64,000 nt of DNA from Candidatus Aenigmatarchaeota archaeon (GCA_038998335.1 JAVZHQ010000001.1:738038-802037), one strand, 5' to 3'; shown: positions 6,978 to 14,655, counted from the stretch's first letter. Translations and numbers: made by a program. The notes: generated by a model from the sequence alone, not told the origin.

Positions 6978-8576
6978 ATGATAAAAAACATAAGGTTTTT
7001 AGTGCTCTTAGCTTTTCTTATAATTTCTGTTTACTTTTTGCTTGCTCCTTTACTTTTTATACCTAAAGGAGTTGTTGTAGTTTCTTTAGACGAGAACAAC
7101 AAATGCGAAGGAATAAGGGAAGGAAGTATAATAACCGAAATGCGTGGCACTGCAATTTCAAGCGAAGAAGATTTTGAAAACTATTTGAAAAATGTTAAGC
7201 AAGGGGAATACGTAAGCATGGTAATAAACAACTTGCCAGGAGGATGCATAGCTTTAAATGATAGTTATCTTGGAATAACAGTGAAAAATTTTGAAAGAAA
7301 GGGTTTAAAGTTTGGAATCGATTTAGCTGGAGGAAAAGCTTCATTTTTTTCTTCAACCCAAGACTTAAAAAAAGTAAAGGAAATTCTTGAAAAAAGGATT
7401 GAAGTTTTCAAGTTTCCTGATGCTAGCGTTTCTGTTTCTGATAAAACAATAAGAATAGTAAGTTTAAGAGATGAGAAGCTTGAGCCTTTGTTGATAAGAG
7501 GAAAATTTGAAGCAAGGATTTCAGAAGAAGTTAAACTAAAAAACAACACAGGAAAATTGCCTTTGGGTAAAGAAGATTATACCATAACTCTTGAAAATGA
7601 AAAAATAAAAATAAACGAAAGTTTTTACGGAGAAAACGAAAGTTTTGTTTTGCAAGGAATAGAATTTAAAATAATAAACATAACAAACTCAAGTGTTTTA
7701 CTAGAAGCTTTAATTTTTACAAAAAAAGATATTAAACAAATTTCTTACAGTTTTGTTAAGTATGAACCTTTAGCTAAACGCTACGAATTTAACATTCCGG
7801 TTGAAATTTCTGAAGAAGCCTCGGAGAGATTTTCAAAAATTATAGATAGAATGCCAACAACTACTGAATCTGGTTCAATAGTTTTAAGTGGAAGGTTGTT
7901 GTACTATCTTGATAATAAAGAAATGAGCAATCTTGCTATACCCTTTTCTCTTGTTGGAAGAAAAATAAGCTCAATCTCTATTTTTGGTTTAAGGGAAAGT
8001 GAGGAAGCAGCAATTCTAGATAAAAACAGAATTGAAGCTTCCTTAAAAACAGAGGATTTGGAACCTCTTAAACCGATTAAAACAGAAAATTTGGAAGCAA
8101 CTTATCCTATGCTTACAACTTACTTCTTTGCTGCTTTGATAACTATTGAAATTTTGTTTTCTTTGTTTGTTTTTCTAAGGTACAGAAAAAAAGAACTTTT
8201 GTTCTACTCGTTAACTCTTTCTTTAATCCAGGCTTTTTTAATCTTTGGTATTAACGCAATTGCTCAAAACCTAGTTCCAAATAGTTGGTTAATAAACTCA
8301 AACACTCTTCTTGGAATTTTAACAATAACAATTTTCACATTGTTCCAATTTGTTCTTGTTCTTGAAAAAAGAGTTAAAAAAAGAGAGTTAAGCTTAAGTT
8401 TTAAACTTAAAAAATTAATTGGTCTTTCAAACTTTTTGAACATTTTAATAGTAATTTCTTCCTTTGTACTCCTTTTTGTTTTTAAAACTTTTGGCTTAAG
8501 TTTACTAACAGGCTTTGTTTTTGGTTTCTTGTTTTTAATTCCTCTTTTTGAGGAAAGGGTAAGAAAATTCACTTGA
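6978..8576 (+). CDS. SecD-like membrane protein (divergent) with N-terminal PDZ-like region
   Basis: GLKFGIDLAGG and ILEKRI motifs, large external domain, C-terminal TM bundle. Confidence 0.65.
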   Translation: MIKNIRFLVLLAFLIISVYFLLAPLLFIPKGVVVVSLDENNKCEGIREGSIITEMRGTAISSEEDFENYLKNVKQGEYVSMVINNLPGGCIALNDSYLGITVKNFERKGLKFGIDLAGGKASFFSSTQDLKKVKEILEKRIEVFKFPDASVSVSDKTIRIVSLRDEKLEPLLIRGKFEARISEEVKLKNNTGKLPLGKEDYTITLENEKIKINESFYGENESFVLQGIEFKIINITNSSVLLEALIFTKKDIKQISYSFVKYEPLAKRYEFNIPVEISEEASERFSKIIDRMPTTTESGSIVLSGRLLYYLDNKEMSNLAIPFSLVGRKISSISIFGLRESEEAAILDKNRIEASLKTEDLEPLKPIKTENLEATYPMLTTYFFAALITIEILFSLFVFLRYRKKELLFYSLTLSLIQAFLIFGINAIAQNLVPNSWLINSNTLLGILTITIFTLFQFVLVLEKRVKKRELSLSFKLKKLIGLSNFLNILIVISSFVLLFVFKTFGLSLLTGFVFGFLFLIPLFEERVRKFT

Positions 8577-9099
8577 AAATTTTTTCTAGAATTTTTGATG
8601 AAGTTTTTTCTGTTAAAACCCTTGGAAAAATTAAACCTATAAGCGAGCCAACTATAACATCCGAAGGATAATGCACACCAGAATAAATAGAAGAAAGAGG
8701 GATTAACACTAACAAATAAAAAGCAGAAAGTTTTTTAAGCCAACTTGGAAAACTTTCAGGGATGAAAAAGAAAGAAAGGTAAGCTATAAAAGCATGGGAA
8801 GAGGGAAAAGAGGGGTCTGCTTTTTTAAACACAACGTTTATTTCTTGACTAGCATCATAAGGTCTTTCTCTTCCAACTAAATACTTAAGTGAAACCACAA
8901 AAATATAACCAATAACAGCAACAACAAAAAGATGAAAAAGCTTTTTGTGTTTTTTTGTTCTAAACAAGTCAAAAGCAACGTAAATCAAGTAAACATAAAC
9001 CGAGTAGATTATAAAAATTGCAAGATAAACTAGATAAACAGAAAAAAAGTTTGAGTTTAAGAATTTAACTATTTCTAAGTCTAGCTCGTTTAAATTCAT
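8569..9099 (-). CDS. PAP2 family membrane phosphatase
   Basis: K..RERP, SFPSSH and GVHYPSDV motifs. Confidence 0.9.
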   Translation of the reverse strand: MNLNELDLEIVKFLNSNFFSVYLVYLAIFIIYSVYVYLIYVAFDLFRTKKHKKLFHLFVVAVIGYIFVVSLKYLVGRERPYDASQEINVVFKKADPSFPSSHAFIAYLSFFFIPESFPSWLKKLSAFYLLVLIPLSSIYSGVHYPSDVIVGSLIGLIFPRVLTEKTSSKILEKIFK

Positions 9100-11783
9100 A
9101 GCTTAACATACCTCCCTCTTGCTTCGCCAAAATAAAATAGAACTTCTCCCCCACAAACAGAACATTTTCCTATCAAAGGAACTCTTCTAAAAGTCTTATT
9201 GCATTTGTTACAGACAAAGCCTTCAAAATCATTTAAAACTTCCTCTTGTTTTTTGTGGTTAAAAGCTTCAGAAATAGATAAAAGCCTTCCAAAACTTATT
9301 AGCTCAGATTTCTTTATTCCTAAAGCATCGAAAACTCTTTCTAAAGGTGGTAAAACTTGACTTTCAATGTAATATCTTGAATCAATCTTTAAGTTATGAG
9401 CTTTTACATATTCTGGATCCTCTGCTCTTTCTGAAAGCATTTGTGTACCTTGAACTATAACGTAACCTATTCTGTCGCCAATCCCAGGAGCTCCTGCTGG
9501 CGACCTTTTTCTTAACTTTTTAACAAGCTCAATATGGGGCTGAATTCCTTTGTATTCTTTTAAAGATTTTGTGATTCCTCTTGTTATAACCAATTCTTCA
9601 ATAGGAATCTCATTCCTGTTTAACTTCCCTAAAACTTCTCTAACATATTTTAAAGCTTTTTTGGGGTTTTGCTCTTTTAGAATTATATCTATAACCTTGT
9701 ACAAGGTTTTGGAAACTAAATCACACCAATCTCTTCTAACAGTTTCTATTCCTTTCATCACTATCTTATCTTTCCATTCACCATTAGATTTTTCAAAGTT
9801 CCAGCCTGCATACCTTTTTTTGGTTAAAACGAGCAATGTTTTGAATATTCCTTCGATTTTCATTTTAACTATGCCTTCATGCTCTTTATTTATAAAATCA
9901 GAAAGCTCTTCCCCAAGTTTCAAAGCCTCTTCTAGATCAAGAGTTGGGAGCTTAACCATTATAGAATCTGTGTCACCATAAACAACTTCATAGCCCTTTT
10001 TGGTTTCAACTATTTTTTTCGTTTTTTCTATTAGAAATCTCCCGCAACTTGTTATTGCATTAGCAATTTCCAAAACATAAAGCCTTGCTCTTACATAACC
10101 AGTATAACCATAAAAAGCGTTTGCCATTATTTTCAAAGCATACTGTTTTGAATCCAAAACCTTTTTTTCATTTTCGTTCTTAGCTTTTTCCATCTCTTTT
10201 TTAACCTTATCTCTTTCTTCTATTAAAAATTTTAAAATTTTTGGAATTATTCCTTCTCTTACTTCCCTTTTAACAAACAAAGCTCCAGAAGGTGTTTTTA
10301 TAGTTTCTCCCTCACTCTCTTTGATAACTAAGGTTGTCGGGCAAATGTTAAAGGAGATGAAGATTGAAGGATACATGGAACGAAAATCTAAGTAAGCAAC
10401 GCAATTTGTGTGTAAGCCAACTTTTGGTTCAAGAACCAAAGCTCCTTTCAAACCTTTTGCTTCCCTTTCTTCCATTCTTTTAAAAACCTCTTCAGAAGAA
10501 GGTTTTGTTGGAATCACAAAACCTCTTTTGTTGAACTCTCTTAACAATAAATTTTCTACTCTTGCGCTTTCTCTACTATCCAAAACATCTTGTAAAAGTA
10601 AGCCAGAAACTTTTGAAAGTTCAATGAACTTACTCAGCATATCCTTTTCGAGTAAAAGTTTAAGTGTAAGCTCTGCATCCTTTCTTGCATAGTTTATTAG
10701 CTCATGTTTCTGCTCCTCTGAACCATTCCAGTATTTTGAAATCTCACTATGGGTTATGTCTATTTTCTCCTCTTTTAACAATTCCTTAGCAACATCTCCT
10801 AAGCCGTATCTCTTAAGCCTCAACAAACCCTTTTCAACAGCCTCCTTAACAAGTTCATAAACATCAACTACAATTCTTCCAAAAGAGGAATGTCTGTACC
10901 TTATTCCAACTTTTTTGGAGTTCGTGGATTTTTGCTGACATCTTCCCAAAAGCCTTGGAATTTTATTCACTCTTAATCTTTCGAGAATGTAAGGTAAATC
11001 AAAATTATTTATGTTATAACCAACTATTATATCTGGATCAAAATTTTTCACTATCTCGATAAACTCTTGCAACATTTCACTTTCATTAGAAAAAACGAGG
11101 ACATCCTTTTCAAACCTTTTTATTGGTTTAGAAACAAGAACCAAAGTGTTATTATTCTCGTAAGCTGGGAAAAAAGAAAGACTTATTATTATTATTGGGT
11201 CTTTAACTGGATTTGGGATACCTTCTTTACCTGGAGCAACTTCTATATCCAAACTCAAGTACTTGAAACTAACGTTTGTTTTCTCTTCTACTTCTTCAAA
11301 TTTACTCGCGTTTATTATTTTGTCTGCCTTTACAAGAATTGTGTTCGCGCTTTCACCTTCTACTTTTATCCAACCCATTCCAGAAATGTTAAAGTCTGCC
11401 ATAAAACGATATTTAAAGAGAATGTCTGCTTCAAAAATTTTTTCAATAAAATTTTTTTTGTTTAACTCTTCCCTAATCTCTGGAACTTTTGAAGGGTCGT
11501 TAACAGTTACTCTCAGCATTTTTGTTTTGTTTTTGGTAAAACCTATGGGCAAGAATTTTTCCTCTTCCCTTATTTCTACTAGTAAAGAAGAAAATGTTTT
11601 TTTCATGAACTCAACAAATTCTTCTTCACAATTTTTCTTTGGTAAGACATAAAAATACGGTAAAAACTTATCATAAAATGCGCAGACAGTTTTACCTTCT
11701 TTTGTCTTACCAAAAACTCTTAAGACTGGTTTATTGTTCAAAGGAATATAATCACAATCAAGAACCTGAAAAGTCACTTCCAT
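9096..11783 (-). CDS. polB: Family B DNA polymerase with C-terminal C4 Zn finger
   Basis: Exo I DIE, Exo II YNINNFD, Exo III YARKD; DFRSMYPS, KIMANAFYGY, YGDTDS, KKRY; tail CNKC...CSVC. Confidence 0.97.
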   Translation of the reverse strand: MEVTFQVLDCDYIPLNNKPVLRVFGKTKEGKTVCAFYDKFLPYFYVLPKKNCEEEFVEFMKKTFSSLLVEIREEEKFLPIGFTKNKTKMLRVTVNDPSKVPEIREELNKKNFIEKIFEADILFKYRFMADFNISGMGWIKVEGESANTILVKADKIINASKFEEVEEKTNVSFKYLSLDIEVAPGKEGIPNPVKDPIIIISLSFFPAYENNNTLVLVSKPIKRFEKDVLVFSNESEMLQEFIEIVKNFDPDIIVGYNINNFDLPYILERLRVNKIPRLLGRCQQKSTNSKKVGIRYRHSSFGRIVVDVYELVKEAVEKGLLRLKRYGLGDVAKELLKEEKIDITHSEISKYWNGSEEQKHELINYARKDAELTLKLLLEKDMLSKFIELSKVSGLLLQDVLDSRESARVENLLLREFNKRGFVIPTKPSSEEVFKRMEEREAKGLKGALVLEPKVGLHTNCVAYLDFRSMYPSIFISFNICPTTLVIKESEGETIKTPSGALFVKREVREGIIPKILKFLIEERDKVKKEMEKAKNENEKKVLDSKQYALKIMANAFYGYTGYVRARLYVLEIANAITSCGRFLIEKTKKIVETKKGYEVVYGDTDSIMVKLPTLDLEEALKLGEELSDFINKEHEGIVKMKIEGIFKTLLVLTKKRYAGWNFEKSNGEWKDKIVMKGIETVRRDWCDLVSKTLYKVIDIILKEQNPKKALKYVREVLGKLNRNEIPIEELVITRGITKSLKEYKGIQPHIELVKKLRKRSPAGAPGIGDRIGYVIVQGTQMLSERAEDPEYVKAHNLKIDSRYYIESQVLPPLERVFDALGIKKSELISFGRLLSISEAFNHKKQEEVLNDFEGFVCNKCNKTFRRVPLIGKCSVCGGEVLFYFGEARGRYVKL

Positions 11784-11792
11784 ATTTCTTAA

Positions 11793-12971
11793 TTATACAA
11801 AATCTATTTTAATAGTTTCTCTTGTTTTCAAGTTTACCAACCAAAAAGTAGGTTCAGTTAAAAAACTTCCGGTTGTTAAAATTGTAGTTCCTTTATAATT
11901 TAATATTGAAGGAATATGAAAATGACCGGAAGCAACAATATCTGGAATTAAATCTATAAGGAATGGGTTGTTTACATAAATTTCTTTACTTGAAGTTGGA
12001 ATTTGTCTTTTTCTTAAAAAGTTCAACAAAATTTTGTTCGGTTGGATATTTGTGAAAGAAAAAGGGAAGTTAAAGTTTGGGTGAAGAAGTAAGAAATTCA
12101 GAGATTTTTCAATTTTAAGTGAAGTTGGATTTAAAAATGAGTTTTTATTTTCTGGGTCGATTTCACCTTTCAACCAAGTGTAAGAATAATTTTTTGGTAA
12201 ATTATTAAACAATTTTTCGATATCTTCAAGTTTTGAAGATATATCGCCAAGAATAAAAACATAAAGTTTTTTGTAGTAGGAGTTGTTAACCCAATCTAAA
12301 AATTTCTCATAACTTTTTTTATTAAAATTTTTTTCATCCATATGAAAATCCGAAACAAAAAGGCAAAAAATTTCTTCTGTTGTTTTGTTTATCTCTTTTT
12401 TTAAAGGAATGTCTGGTAAAACGATTTTTTTAACAAAAATTCTTTCCCCTTCTTTCTCACAAACTAAACCTAGAATTTCATCTTCTAAAATAAACTTAAA
12501 ATCTTCCTCTAAATTTTCAAAATAAACAGCTTGCTCGCCTGTAAAATCTTCAACAACCAAACTTTTTTCTTCTTCATTTTTTTCTTTAACCATAACTATC
12601 AAAGAAAACTTCCTTGTTCTCTGTGAAATCTTGTTTATAGAAATCAAGTTTACTAGATCAAAATGTTTGGTTAAGAGTTTTCTTATTTCCTCATATTTTA
12701 AGGAAAGAAAGTTCGTATAATCTGAAACGCTTAAAATTTTTTCTTCCTTCTTAGGAGTTTTCAAGATATCGATTTGATAAAAAATTTTACTTTCTATTTC
12801 TTTTAAAATTTCGGTTGTTATTATCAAAGGGTAGTTTGGTAATTTTTTTAGTTCTTCTAAGTAGTATTTTATGTTTTTTCTTTCAAGTAAATACTCTAAA
12901 GCTTCAGGATGTAGTTGAAAACCATTTTTTAAAAACTCTTTTATTATTTCTTGTCTTTCCATAGAATCCAT
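11793..12971 (-). CDS. PolD small subunit (DP1) / polymerase B-subunit-like protein with degenerate phosphoesterase motifs
   Basis: N-terminal helical domain (FLKNGFQLHPEAL), OB-fold-like VMVKEK...VEDFTGE, PDIP linker, SDFH, GD and GHFH motifs, C-terminal VNLKT. Confidence 0.8.
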   Translation of the reverse strand: MDSMERQEIIKEFLKNGFQLHPEALEYLLERKNIKYYLEELKKLPNYPLIITTEILKEIESKIFYQIDILKTPKKEEKILSVSDYTNFLSLKYEEIRKLLTKHFDLVNLISINKISQRTRKFSLIVMVKEKNEEEKSLVVEDFTGEQAVYFENLEEDFKFILEDEILGLVCEKEGERIFVKKIVLPDIPLKKEINKTTEEIFCLFVSDFHMDEKNFNKKSYEKFLDWVNNSYYKKLYVFILGDISSKLEDIEKLFNNLPKNYSYTWLKGEIDPENKNSFLNPTSLKIEKSLNFLLLHPNFNFPFSFTNIQPNKILLNFLRKRQIPTSSKEIYVNNPFLIDLIPDIVASGHFHIPSILNYKGTTILTTGSFLTEPTFWLVNLKTRETIKIDFV

Positions 12972-13322: not shown

Positions 13323-13395
13323 TTCATAAAAATTTTCTGAAAGTTCATAATTATTGTTTGAAAGTTCATAAAAATTTTCTGAAAGTTCATAAAAA
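13323..13395. repeat. Tandem 21-bp repeat array (three full units and one partial)
   Basis: TTCATA at 13323, 13344, 13365 and 13386; units 1 and 3 are identical (TTCATAAAAATTTTCTGAAAG). Confidence 0.9.
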
Positions 13396-13472: not shown

Positions 13473-13856
13473 TTATAAAAATTTCATCAAACCATTTATC
13501 ATGAAAAATTTAATTATAATTGCTCGAACAAAATTTTCCTTTCCTTTTAGTGGTTCATAACTTGTTGGGTTAGAATGTTTTACCTTAATTAACAAGTTCA
13601 TCTTAACTAGTTTATTCAATCTTTTTCTCAACGCTTCTATACCTATCTTAAAATGATGAGTATTTTTCAGTTCACTATAAAGAAGTGGAAAACAATAAGG
13701 TTGGGTATCGTTTGGAAATTCTTTTCCAGTCATATAAAATTTTCTTAGAATTTGGATGTCAACAAAATCTAAACGTTCGATGAAATTCAGAATTTCATCT
13801 TTTATTTCTGTATTTTTTTCCAAAGAAATGTTTATAAACGAATCCACACTATTCAT
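13473..13856 (-). CDS. Hypothetical protein, probable winged helix
   Basis: DFVDIQILRKFY...EALRKRLNKLVKMNLLIK pattern. Confidence 0.6.
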   Translation of the reverse strand: MNSVDSFINISLEKNTEIKDEILNFIERLDFVDIQILRKFYMTGKEFPNDTQPYCFPLLYSELKNTHHFKIGIEALRKRLNKLVKMNLLIKVKHSNPTSYEPLKGKENFVRAIIIKFFMINGLMKFL

Positions 13857-13942: not shown

Positions 13943-14620
13943 TCATATCAAACTAATTATTTTCACGTCAACTTTTCCGTTAATAACATCAATTATTCCA
14001 CAATAACCCTCAGGAAATCTCCCAGGATTAATTATTTTTGTGGTTTCAATCTCATCCAAACCTCTTGCTTCATGTACATGTGAGCAAATAGCAACCTTAG
14101 GTTTATAATTTTCTATAAATTTTCTAACAGCTTCTGATCCTATGTGCGCTCCTGTATAAGCAATATCAACTTTTGAATTGAAAGGAGGAACATGGGTTAC
14201 TTGAACTTTTACTTCACAATTCTTTACTTTTTCATAACCTTTTTTTAAACCTTCTTCAATTTCATTTTCACTAGGTTCTAAAGGCGTGTGAAAAGGAGTT
14301 CTTGCCCCACCAAAACCATAGAAACCAATATTTTCTATTATTTTTCCTTCTCCATGTAGGTTTATCCCTTTTTCTTTAAACAATTCTATCAAATCTCTAT
14401 CAAAATTTCCTGGGATTGCTAGCATAGGCTTCTTAAAAGTCTTAAACTCTTCAATAATAAGCTCGCCAATATCTCTGGCTTCAAAACCCTTTGGAAGATT
14501 GTAGTCTGTAAAATCTCCAAGCAAAACTATAACATCAAAATTTATAAAAGAAATTTTATCAGTATAAGTGATTATGTTTTCTACATCGTTATGTATGTCG
14601 CTAACTGCTAAAATCCTCAT
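13943..14620 (-). CDS. Calcineurin-like metallophosphoesterase
   Basis: SDIH, GDFTD, PGNFD, HVPP and SHVHE motifs. Confidence 0.9.
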   Translation of the reverse strand: MRILAVSDIHNDVENIITYTDKISFINFDVIVLLGDFTDYNLPKGFEARDIGELIIEEFKTFKKPMLAIPGNFDRDLIELFKEKGINLHGEGKIIENIGFYGFGGARTPFHTPLEPSENEIEEGLKKGYEKVKNCEVKVQVTHVPPFNSKVDIAYTGAHIGSEAVRKFIENYKPKVAICSHVHEARGLDEIETTKIINPGRFPEGYCGIIDVINGKVDVKIISLI

Positions 14621-14655
14621 CAAACTCAATATATTAAATCTTTTATAAAAATAAA

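Follow-up and report, generated by a model that had tools for sequence, protein, structure and literature searches.

A 64,000-nucleotide stretch of DNA from a Candidatus Aenigmatarchaeota archaeon (GCA_038998335.1, JAVZHQ010000001.1:738038-802037; the window in what follows) carries a compact minus-strand gene cluster in which the gene for a family-B DNA polymerase (PolB) directly follows the gene for a homolog of DP1, the small subunit of the archaeal DNA polymerase PolD. The C-terminal region of the PolB bears a cysteine-rich tail that resembles a zinc module of DP2, the large subunit of PolD, and through which the polymerase is predicted to contact the DP1-like protein. The two open reading frames (ORFs) lie on the same strand with 9 nt between the DP1-like stop and the PolB start, the spacing given in an earlier note made from the sequence alone. 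A small winged-helix gene and an array of short direct repeats lie upstream. The features are listed in Table 1.

Table 1. Positions of the features of the PolB/DP1-like cluster in the window, and of the second PolB of the same genome
Feature	Position	Strand	Remarks
PolB catalytic subunit, 895 aa	9096..11783	-	Intact 3'-5' exonuclease and polymerase motifs; Pol-delta-affine paralog
C-terminal Zn-ribbon tail of PolB, residues 856-895	9099..9218	-	DP2 Zn-III derived; predicted DP1-docking module
DP1/B-subunit homolog, 392 aa	11793..12971	-	N-terminal helical domain, OB fold, degenerate phosphodiesterase domain
Winged-helix protein, 85 aa	12979..13236	-	Heads the cluster; ends 7 nt before the DP1-like start
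Repeat array, three exact TTATGAACTTTCA copies, 21-bp period	13338..13392	-	Candidate operator array
Second PolB, 830 aa, without Cys-rich tail	G000:C2:130826-132061 (L006 319-2811)		Other contig; motifs intact

Published background

Some PolBs of group B6, which come mostly from Aenigmarchaeota, are described as carrying a C-terminal domain (CTD) with one metal motif, 'B6-aenigma1', that is nearest to the DP2 zinc motif zfIII (Kazlauskas et al. 2020, NAR, PMC7544198). According to the main text of that survey, most sequenced Aenigmarchaeota are without DP2, their DP1 is inactivated and forms the group 'Aenigma_GB_GCA_002789635-like', and DP2 was presumably replaced by the B6-aenigma1 PolB. 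AlphaFold3 models and yeast two-hybrid assays were later reported to show DP1 binding to PolB-DP2CTD in Aenigmatarchaeota and in a Baldrarchaeial lineage, and not to canonical PolBs (2025, Nat Ecol Evol, PMC12680538). The eukaryote-like pairing of PolB and DP1 is real and already published.

Genome setting

The host assembly comprises 1.009 Mb in 9 contigs and is 90.4% complete. The nearest named relative of the DP1-like protein in a single-protein search is a Candidatus Aenigmatarchaeota metagenome-assembled genome (87% identity), which is consistent with assignment to the phylum in which B6-aenigma1 was described. Family searches of the whole genome covered DP2, DP1 and PolB. The PolB tail was the sole match to DP2; because the genome is about 90% complete, DP2 counts as not found and its absence as not proven. 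No second DP1 homolog was detected besides the gene in the cluster, so that the search for a separate canonical DP1 and DP2 suggested in the earlier note turned up neither in this 90%-complete genome. Two PolBs are encoded, and the Cys tail occurs in the copy of the window only.

The PolB catalytic subunit

The window PolB matches the Pfam families DNA_pol_B (E 3.3e-121) and DNA_pol_B_exo1 (E 4.8e-37). In an alignment of 36 orthologs the exonuclease residues D179/E181, D262 and Y365/D369, the polymerase residues D466/Y471, K551/N555/G559 and D604-T605-D606, and also K655-K656-Y658 are invariant. Intact polymerase and proofreading motifs, as claimed in the earlier note, are thereby borne out, and the motifs YGYTG, KKRYAG and KGIETVRRD cited there as delta-like are all found in the protein. 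The delta-like label itself is supported by the ranking of structures in the PDB: the top match of the tailed PolB is the catalytic subunit of human Pol delta (6s1m_A, 1.7e-121), behind which the best Thermococcales PolB (1tgo_A, 9.3e-111) is ranked. The second, tail-less PolB, which is 35% identical to the tailed one, shows the opposite order (Thermococcales PolB 1.4e-165 versus Pol delta 4.1e-49).

In two relatives the PolB orthologs contain LAGLIDADG inteins (L060, G105:C2, 1752-5924; L061, JAWBVB010000008.1, 6179-8570). One of the two is encoded as a precursor of 1,390 aa, in which Intein_splicing and LAGLIDADG_3 are matched. The PolB of the nearest named relative is interrupted after approximately residue 468; the window PolB is intein-free.

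The segment that connects the thumb domain to the Zn tail contains, in most orthologs, the element G-x-G-[RK]-Q-x-x-[LI]-x-x-x-x. In the window PolB the Gln of this motif is replaced (GRLLSISEAF; residues ~826-845, nt ~9249-9308). The G-x-G-[RK]-Q motif is reminiscent of the C-terminal PCNA-binding box of euryarchaeal PolBs.

The C-terminal zinc tail

The C-terminal region of the window PolB contains FVCNKCNKTFRRVPLIGKCSVCGGEVLFYFGEARGRYVKL. The tail follows the pattern C858-x2-C861...R866-R867-x-P869-L-x-G872-x-C874-x2-C877-G-G, after which come terminal beta strands, and thus has a single CxxC...CxxC metal motif, as described for B6-aenigma1. It reads FVCNKCNKTFRRVPLIGKCSVCGG, followed by 16 further residues to the C-terminus. 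Of the claim that the protein ends in a DP2-like Cys4 motif, the motif stands and its position at the extreme C-terminus does not, since these 16 residues come after it.

Residues 856-883 match the NCBIfam DP2 model NF003103 (positions 1042-1069 of 1125, E 1.2e-5) and also NF011302 (E 5.3e-5). None of the cysteines C858, C861, C874 and C877 varies among the 36 aligned PolBs, and R867, P869, G872 and G879 are conserved in at least 90% of them. An alignment by eye with Zn-III of four canonical DP2s from family f11 of the same phylum gave a common pattern, F-x-C-x-x-C-x-x-x-[FY]-R-R-x-P-L-x-G-x-C-x-x-C-x-G, plus the next strand. Together with the model matches this comparison bears out the proposed resemblance to the C-terminal Zn module of DP2.

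In PolD the Zn-III loop (R1131, R1132) inserts into an electronegative groove between the OB and phosphodiesterase (PDE) domains of DP1 (Raia et al. 2019, PMC6355029). For a 20-aa peptide of Zn-III, nanomolar binding to DP1 has been reported (work cited in PMC6355029). The docking of this loop and the affinity of the peptide make a tail composed of Zn-III only plausible as a minimal docking module; the ~40-aa tail appears sufficient for docking.

The DP1-like protein

The protein encoded upstream of PolB matches five NCBIfam DP1 small-subunit models. The best match, to NF003118 (E 1.3e-42), starts at model position 2 and covers the N-terminal domain; its score of 146 bits lies far under the cut-off of 445 bits, by which canonical DP1 is recognised, and marks the protein as divergent. 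Judged from these model scores it is a DP1 homolog, not an equivalog. In Pfam only weak, sub-cut-off Metallophos matches were obtained, so that DP1 is not identified from Pfam alone. A profile built from 28 DP1-like sequences matched archaeal DP1 chains only in the PDB (6 distinct sequences at E <= 0.01; best 6knb_A, 1.8e-33), and eukaryotic B subunits were not matched by it. The NF003118 and PDB profile matches uphold the identification of the neighbour as a DP1/B-subunit homolog.

PDE motifs I-V of canonical DP1, taken from three f11 proteins, are SDLHIGS, GDLVDG, GNHD, YHG and SGHLH. The corresponding segments of the window protein are SDFHMDE, LGDISS, KGEID, LHP and SGHFH. Motif III is thus GEID instead of GNHD, with Asn and His replaced; motifs I, II, IV and V remain recognisable. 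Approximately 19 residues between motifs II and III, plus other segments, are deleted relative to the DP1s of f11, which are long ORFs of 460-523 aa with all five motifs. The changed motif III and the deletions suggest an inactivated phosphodiesterase site, as described for the DP1 that accompanies B6-aenigma1. Related families have PGE/NxD variants from which the His is gone, and several other families have lost nearly all PDE motifs and kept the operon. The decay of DP1, as read from these alignments, is graded: the genus of the window keeps four of the five motifs, other families keep almost none, and the OB docking patch is retained. In 28 aligned DP1-like proteins of family f1, to which the window belongs, every catalytic position varies; invariance is seen for D142 and G145 in the OB fold and for a C-terminal NYKG block, and E141 and T144 are conserved in at least 90% of the members.

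The DP1-like protein of this genus could still be an active Mre11-like nuclease, serving as a second proofreader or in flap or primer processing and perhaps bound to PolB as well. Such a role would fit the persistence of motifs I (DxH), II (GD), IV (H) and V (GHxH) across the genus, the window included. The loss of Asn and His from motif III and the deletion of ~19 residues between motifs II and III and of other segments speak against it, as does the drift of catalytic positions within the family and their near-complete loss in other families that keep the operon, which points to relaxed selection on catalysis. This DP1 group is scored inactive in PMC7544198, and we consider a surviving nuclease improbable.

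A stand-alone calcineurin-like metallophosphoesterase of 228 aa (13943-14629, minus strand; Pfam Metallophos 2.8e-18) is encoded two genes upstream and is syntenic in family f1. Its PDE appears intact, beside the decayed PDE of the DP1-like protein; a functional link between the two is speculation.

Distribution and gene linkage in the phylum

A survey of the phylum covered 201 genomes, including that of the window. The DP1-like protein has matches (E <= 1e-5) in 159 of the 201 genomes and in 72 of 92 high-quality genomes. Matches to the DP2 model occur in 78 of the 201. Near-full-length DP2 is confined to family f11 (8/8 genomes); in 70 genomes the hits extend over 27-67 residues only, at approximately positions 1021-1107 of the model, and lie at the ends of ORFs of ~870-960 aa, with a few ORFs being longer.

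Linkage was counted with one DP1-like match per genome in 146 genomes, drawn from 150 matches, secondary matches being set aside, and the following figures hold among the matches listed. A tail hit and a DP1-like hit are both present in 59 genomes, and in 51 of these the tail follows the DP1-like hit on the same strand, at a distance of 2,564-4,162 nt downstream. Conservation of the neighbourhood, which the earlier note had wished to see checked, is thereby observed within the phylum. Twenty further regions of family f1 were inspected, 12 of them from genomes in which the DP2 model had missed the tail. The DP1-like gene lies 1-54 nt upstream of PolB in 20/20, and the Cys4 tail is present in 19, one being cut by the contig end. 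Its presence in loci missed by the model indicates that the misses are threshold effects. The DP1-like/PolB pair was also found in 17 loci from other families. The order DP1 then PolB is, on this genomic evidence, conserved across the phylum as a putative operon. Gene adjacency is not mentioned in the main texts of PMC7544198 or PMC12680538, in the latter of which 'operon' refers to RFC only; their supplements may hold it. The literature search surfaced no other paper on an operonic pairing of DP1 and PolB.

A different account takes the DP1-like protein as the partner of a canonical DP2 that is missing from an incomplete assembly, with the adjacency to PolB reflecting mere co-regulation of replication genes. 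The 90.4% completeness of the genome leaves room for this, and DP2 fragments occur in two members of the otherwise DP2-less family f1, namely G168 (same genus; a C-terminal fragment of 240 aa, G168:C78:2-721, on a contig of 1,946 nt) and G090 (same family; DP2 and DP1 fragment, G090:C64:8-1867, on a contig of 3,058 nt). Both fragments (L082, L083) are on the shortest kind of contig and are 37-42% identical to f11 DP2s, with G+C contents like those of their bins; they could be mis-binned or relict. G090 also has a PolB-linked DP1-like gene elsewhere. DP2 was not found in the 9 contigs of the window's own genome nor in 39 of 41 other f1 genomes, many of which are 90-96% complete, and it is systematic in f11 only, where the DP1s are long and have all five motifs. 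Two published surveys find the lineage DP2-less in their main texts (PMC7544198, PMC12680538). A canonical DP2 partner lost from the assembly is very improbable on these grounds. The combination named in the earlier note as speaking against its proposal, a DP2 encoded elsewhere and a linkage that is not conserved, was not seen in the phylum survey.

Predicted complex

The complex was predicted from the DP1-like protein (28-row alignment), PolB residues 806-895 (36-row alignment) and zinc. An ipSAE of 0.77 was obtained in each of three runs, compared with 0.00 for the best of three controls. Scores at the level of 0.77 were attained by 58 of the 80 solved complexes and by 2 of the 110 mismatched pairs in a calibration from which the present set-up differs by its own alignments and the accompanying zinc. 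The partner pLDDT is 66-69, and at least 97% of the contacts agree between runs. The confident interface comprises residues 866-872, 875, 881-883 and 891-895 of PolB and residues 75-93, 127-129, 141-146, 163-164 and 329-330 of the DP1-like protein. The near-invariant R867/P869/G872 loop is predicted to lie on the conserved E-D-x-T-G patch of the OB fold (141-146), with slight contact to the PDE domain. The predicted interface is centred on the tail loop, where an interaction through the Zn finger had been proposed, and the heterodimer put forward in the earlier note is supported by the prediction and by the conserved linkage. The score shows likeness to true complexes, not binding by this copy. 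Binding of the tail by the DP1-like protein is a prediction for the window, and the published two-hybrid data concern the phylum rather than this strain.

The Cys4 tail might instead be a zinc ribbon for contact with DNA, primase or PCNA, or for stability, without serving as a binding site for the DP1-like protein. The Zn-III of PolD is also close to the nascent duplex (PMC6355029), an interaction of primase with DP2CTD is reported in Heimdallarchaea (PMC12680538), and the window tail is without the helical bundle of DP2. Against such a purpose, the best-conserved part of the tail other than the cysteines is the DP1-docking RRxP loop, which the prediction (0.77 versus 0.00 in controls) places in the conserved OB patch. 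The gene order is kept in 51 of 59 genomes among the matches listed, and two-hybrid binding is published for tailed PolB and for no canonical PolB (PMC12680538). We regard a tail of other purpose as very improbable.

Comparison with known systems

The locus very probably encodes the replicative polymerase of an archaeon of the Aenigmatarchaeota (DPANN) and exemplifies the B6-aenigma1 arrangement already in print. The assignment is made by the tail, the state of DP1, the DP2 not found and the phylum, rather than by a PolB tree. Placement of the PolB core in group B6, the sister of the Delta-like clade, has indirect support from the PDB ranking of the tailed PolB and the opposite ranking of its paralog. 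With B6-aenigma1 and its inactivated DP1 the locus shares the phylum, a single Zn-III-like motif, DP2 not found, a degenerate DP1 nuclease site and affinity to Pol delta, and nothing essential differs.

The Baldrarchaeial PolB3-DP2CTD (PMC12680538) is likewise a PolB with a DP2-derived CTD, from a DP2-less lineage that keeps DP1, and with two-hybrid binding. Its CTD is described as full length and like those of DP2 and eukaryotic polymerases, whereas that of the window consists of the Zn-III ribbon and the next strands, ~40 aa. Archaeal PolD (PDB 6hms, 6t8h, 8ppt) has a homologous small subunit, a Zn-III RRxP docking element and the same OB/PDE docking site as predicted here. In contrast to PolD, the catalytic subunit of the window is family-B and not the two-barrel DP2, proofreading resides in PolB and not in DP1, and the helical bundle of DP2 is absent.

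Eukaryotic Pol delta (POLD1/Pol3 with POLD2/Pol31), like Pol alpha and Pol epsilon, pairs a family-B subunit bearing a Cys-rich C-terminal module with an inactivated DP1-type B subunit, which that module binds. The window differs in having one metal motif, not CysA and CysB, and no helical CTD, and no Pol32/p66-type third subunit is recognisable at the locus.

Proposed architecture

On the DP1-like protein, the groove that separates OB fold from PDE domain would receive the RRxPLxG loop and the terminal strands of the PolB tail, a mode of docking known for DP2 Zn-III in PolD, and a eukaryote-like heterodimer of catalytic subunit and B subunit would result. PolB would supply both synthesis and proofreading, and the DP1-like protein would act as a structural B subunit. 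Interaction of the N-terminal domain of DP1 (DP1N) with Gins51C is known from Thermococcus kodakarensis, and that of Dpb2N with Psf1C from yeast (PMC9023282). The genome encodes one Sld5-family GINS protein (183-aa ORF; C1:345558-345848). Given these interactions and the single GINS gene, the DP1-like protein probably uses its retained N-terminal domain (about residues 1-60) to tether the polymerase to GINS and a CMG-type helicase. The winged-helix, DP1-like and PolB genes may be co-transcribed in that order. A scan for sigma-70 promoters, which does not model archaeal promoters, gave 17 sites versus 20 expected, and terminators numbered 2 versus 2.5 expected; the result is uninformative.

Several points count against the proposed heterodimer and its role. 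Among the matches listed, 4 of the 59 genomes have the two hits in another arrangement on one contig (1 in reversed order, 3 on opposite strands) and a further 4 have them on different contigs. The DP2 fragments of G168 and G090 are to be weighed here as well. The tail is without the helices that flank Zn-III in DP2, a bundle that also contacts DP1 in PolD and its counterpart in eukaryotic polymerases, and the aenigmatarchaeal CTD is called shorter, degenerate and structurally different in PMC12680538. The four PDE motifs that survive in the window genus may still allow residual metal binding or nuclease activity. DP1-DP2 complexes are already solved, so that the complex score may partly be model memory, and the departure from the calibration set-up adds to this. 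We infer the replicase role, the co-transcription and the GINS tether.

The winged-helix gene and the repeat array

The first gene of the cluster encodes a protein with an invariant N-terminal M-x-R-G-R motif in an alignment of 21 sequences. It matches the winged helix of Pfam TBPIP/Hop2 with 25.5 bits (cut-off 22.8), and the predicted fold is a winged helix (pLDDT 86.4). The nearest structures among the best 50 found by Foldseek are the regulators PadR, LmrR, Zur, Fur and MarR, and Hop2; no replisome protein and no Pol32/p66 is among these 50 PDB matches. Homology to Pol32/p66N or to the winged helix of Orc1/Cdc6 was considered and rejected, the matches being to the generic TBPIP/Hop2 winged helix and to regulators only. 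A functional role in the replisome may exist without homology to such parts.

The winged-helix gene lies directly upstream of the DP1-like gene in 21/21 f1 loci and in one f3 locus. Matches at E <= 1e-3 occur in 64 of the 201 genomes of the phylum, distributed over f1 (39/41), f3 (9/9), f5 (1/1), f6 (1/1) and f2 (1/12, weak); at the same threshold there are none in f11 (0/8) and f15 (0/16). Of the 55 matches at E <= 1e-10, 46 are located 9-97 nt upstream of the DP1-like hit.

Upstream of the winged-helix gene lies an intergenic region of 236 nt, which contains the repeat array. The repeated unit TTATGAACTTTCA is a 13-mer with the core palindrome TGAA-NN-TTCA, and a partial fourth copy is found downstream of the array. 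Exact copies do not occur elsewhere in the 64-kb window, and across the 1.0-Mb genome the phased repeat pair is confined to this locus (0 occurrences of the reversed control pattern). Arrays of a similar kind are present at the corresponding position in 5 of 7 relatives examined; one of the two without an array had only 132 nt available. The simplest reading of the sequence is a locus-specific operator, possibly for the winged-helix protein. As a replication origin the array seems less probable than as an operator, since its repeats run in direct orientation with no inversion about an unwinding element and orc1/cdc6 is located on a different contig; no test aimed at origins was made.

It is conceivable, if rather doubtful, that in the taxonomic order to which the window belongs the three genes form a replicase unit in which the winged-helix protein is a dedicated third component, either an autoregulator acting on the array or a DNA-binding accessory subunit. 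If so, an autoregulator would set the dosage of the replicase through the TGAA-NN-TTCA array, and an accessory subunit would take the functional place of the third subunits found in eukaryotic polymerases.

Neighbouring genes

A 127-aa ORF (13473-13856, minus strand) has no Pfam family above threshold and faint winged-helix hits only; in 19 f1 loci it is conserved, in a syntenic position upstream of the cluster. Downstream, the start codon of a 176-aa PAP2-family phosphatase ORF (8569-9099, minus strand) overlaps the PolB stop codon. Strong matches to this lipid-phosphatase gene (E 5e-34 to 6e-84) stand next after PolB in 9 of 21 f1 loci, and weak hits were obtained in three loci of other families.

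Significance

The additions to the published work on B6-aenigma1 are incremental: the operon statistics from 201 genomes, the graded loss of motifs in DP1, and, at the head of the cluster in one taxonomic order of the phylum, the winged-helix gene together with the repeat array. The last is a detail beyond the main texts of PMC7544198 and PMC12680538, and the supplements of these papers may hold some of these points. The architecture bears on the origin of the eukaryotic replicative polymerases, in that a living archaeal lineage shows a family-B polymerase taking over the docking module of DP2 while the DP1 partner loses its nuclease. This argument was already made and partly tested in 2020 and 2025, so that the window provides a further clean, intein-free, single-contig example and not a discovery. 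The winged-helix gene and the locus-specific array offer a handle on the regulation of such a replicase.

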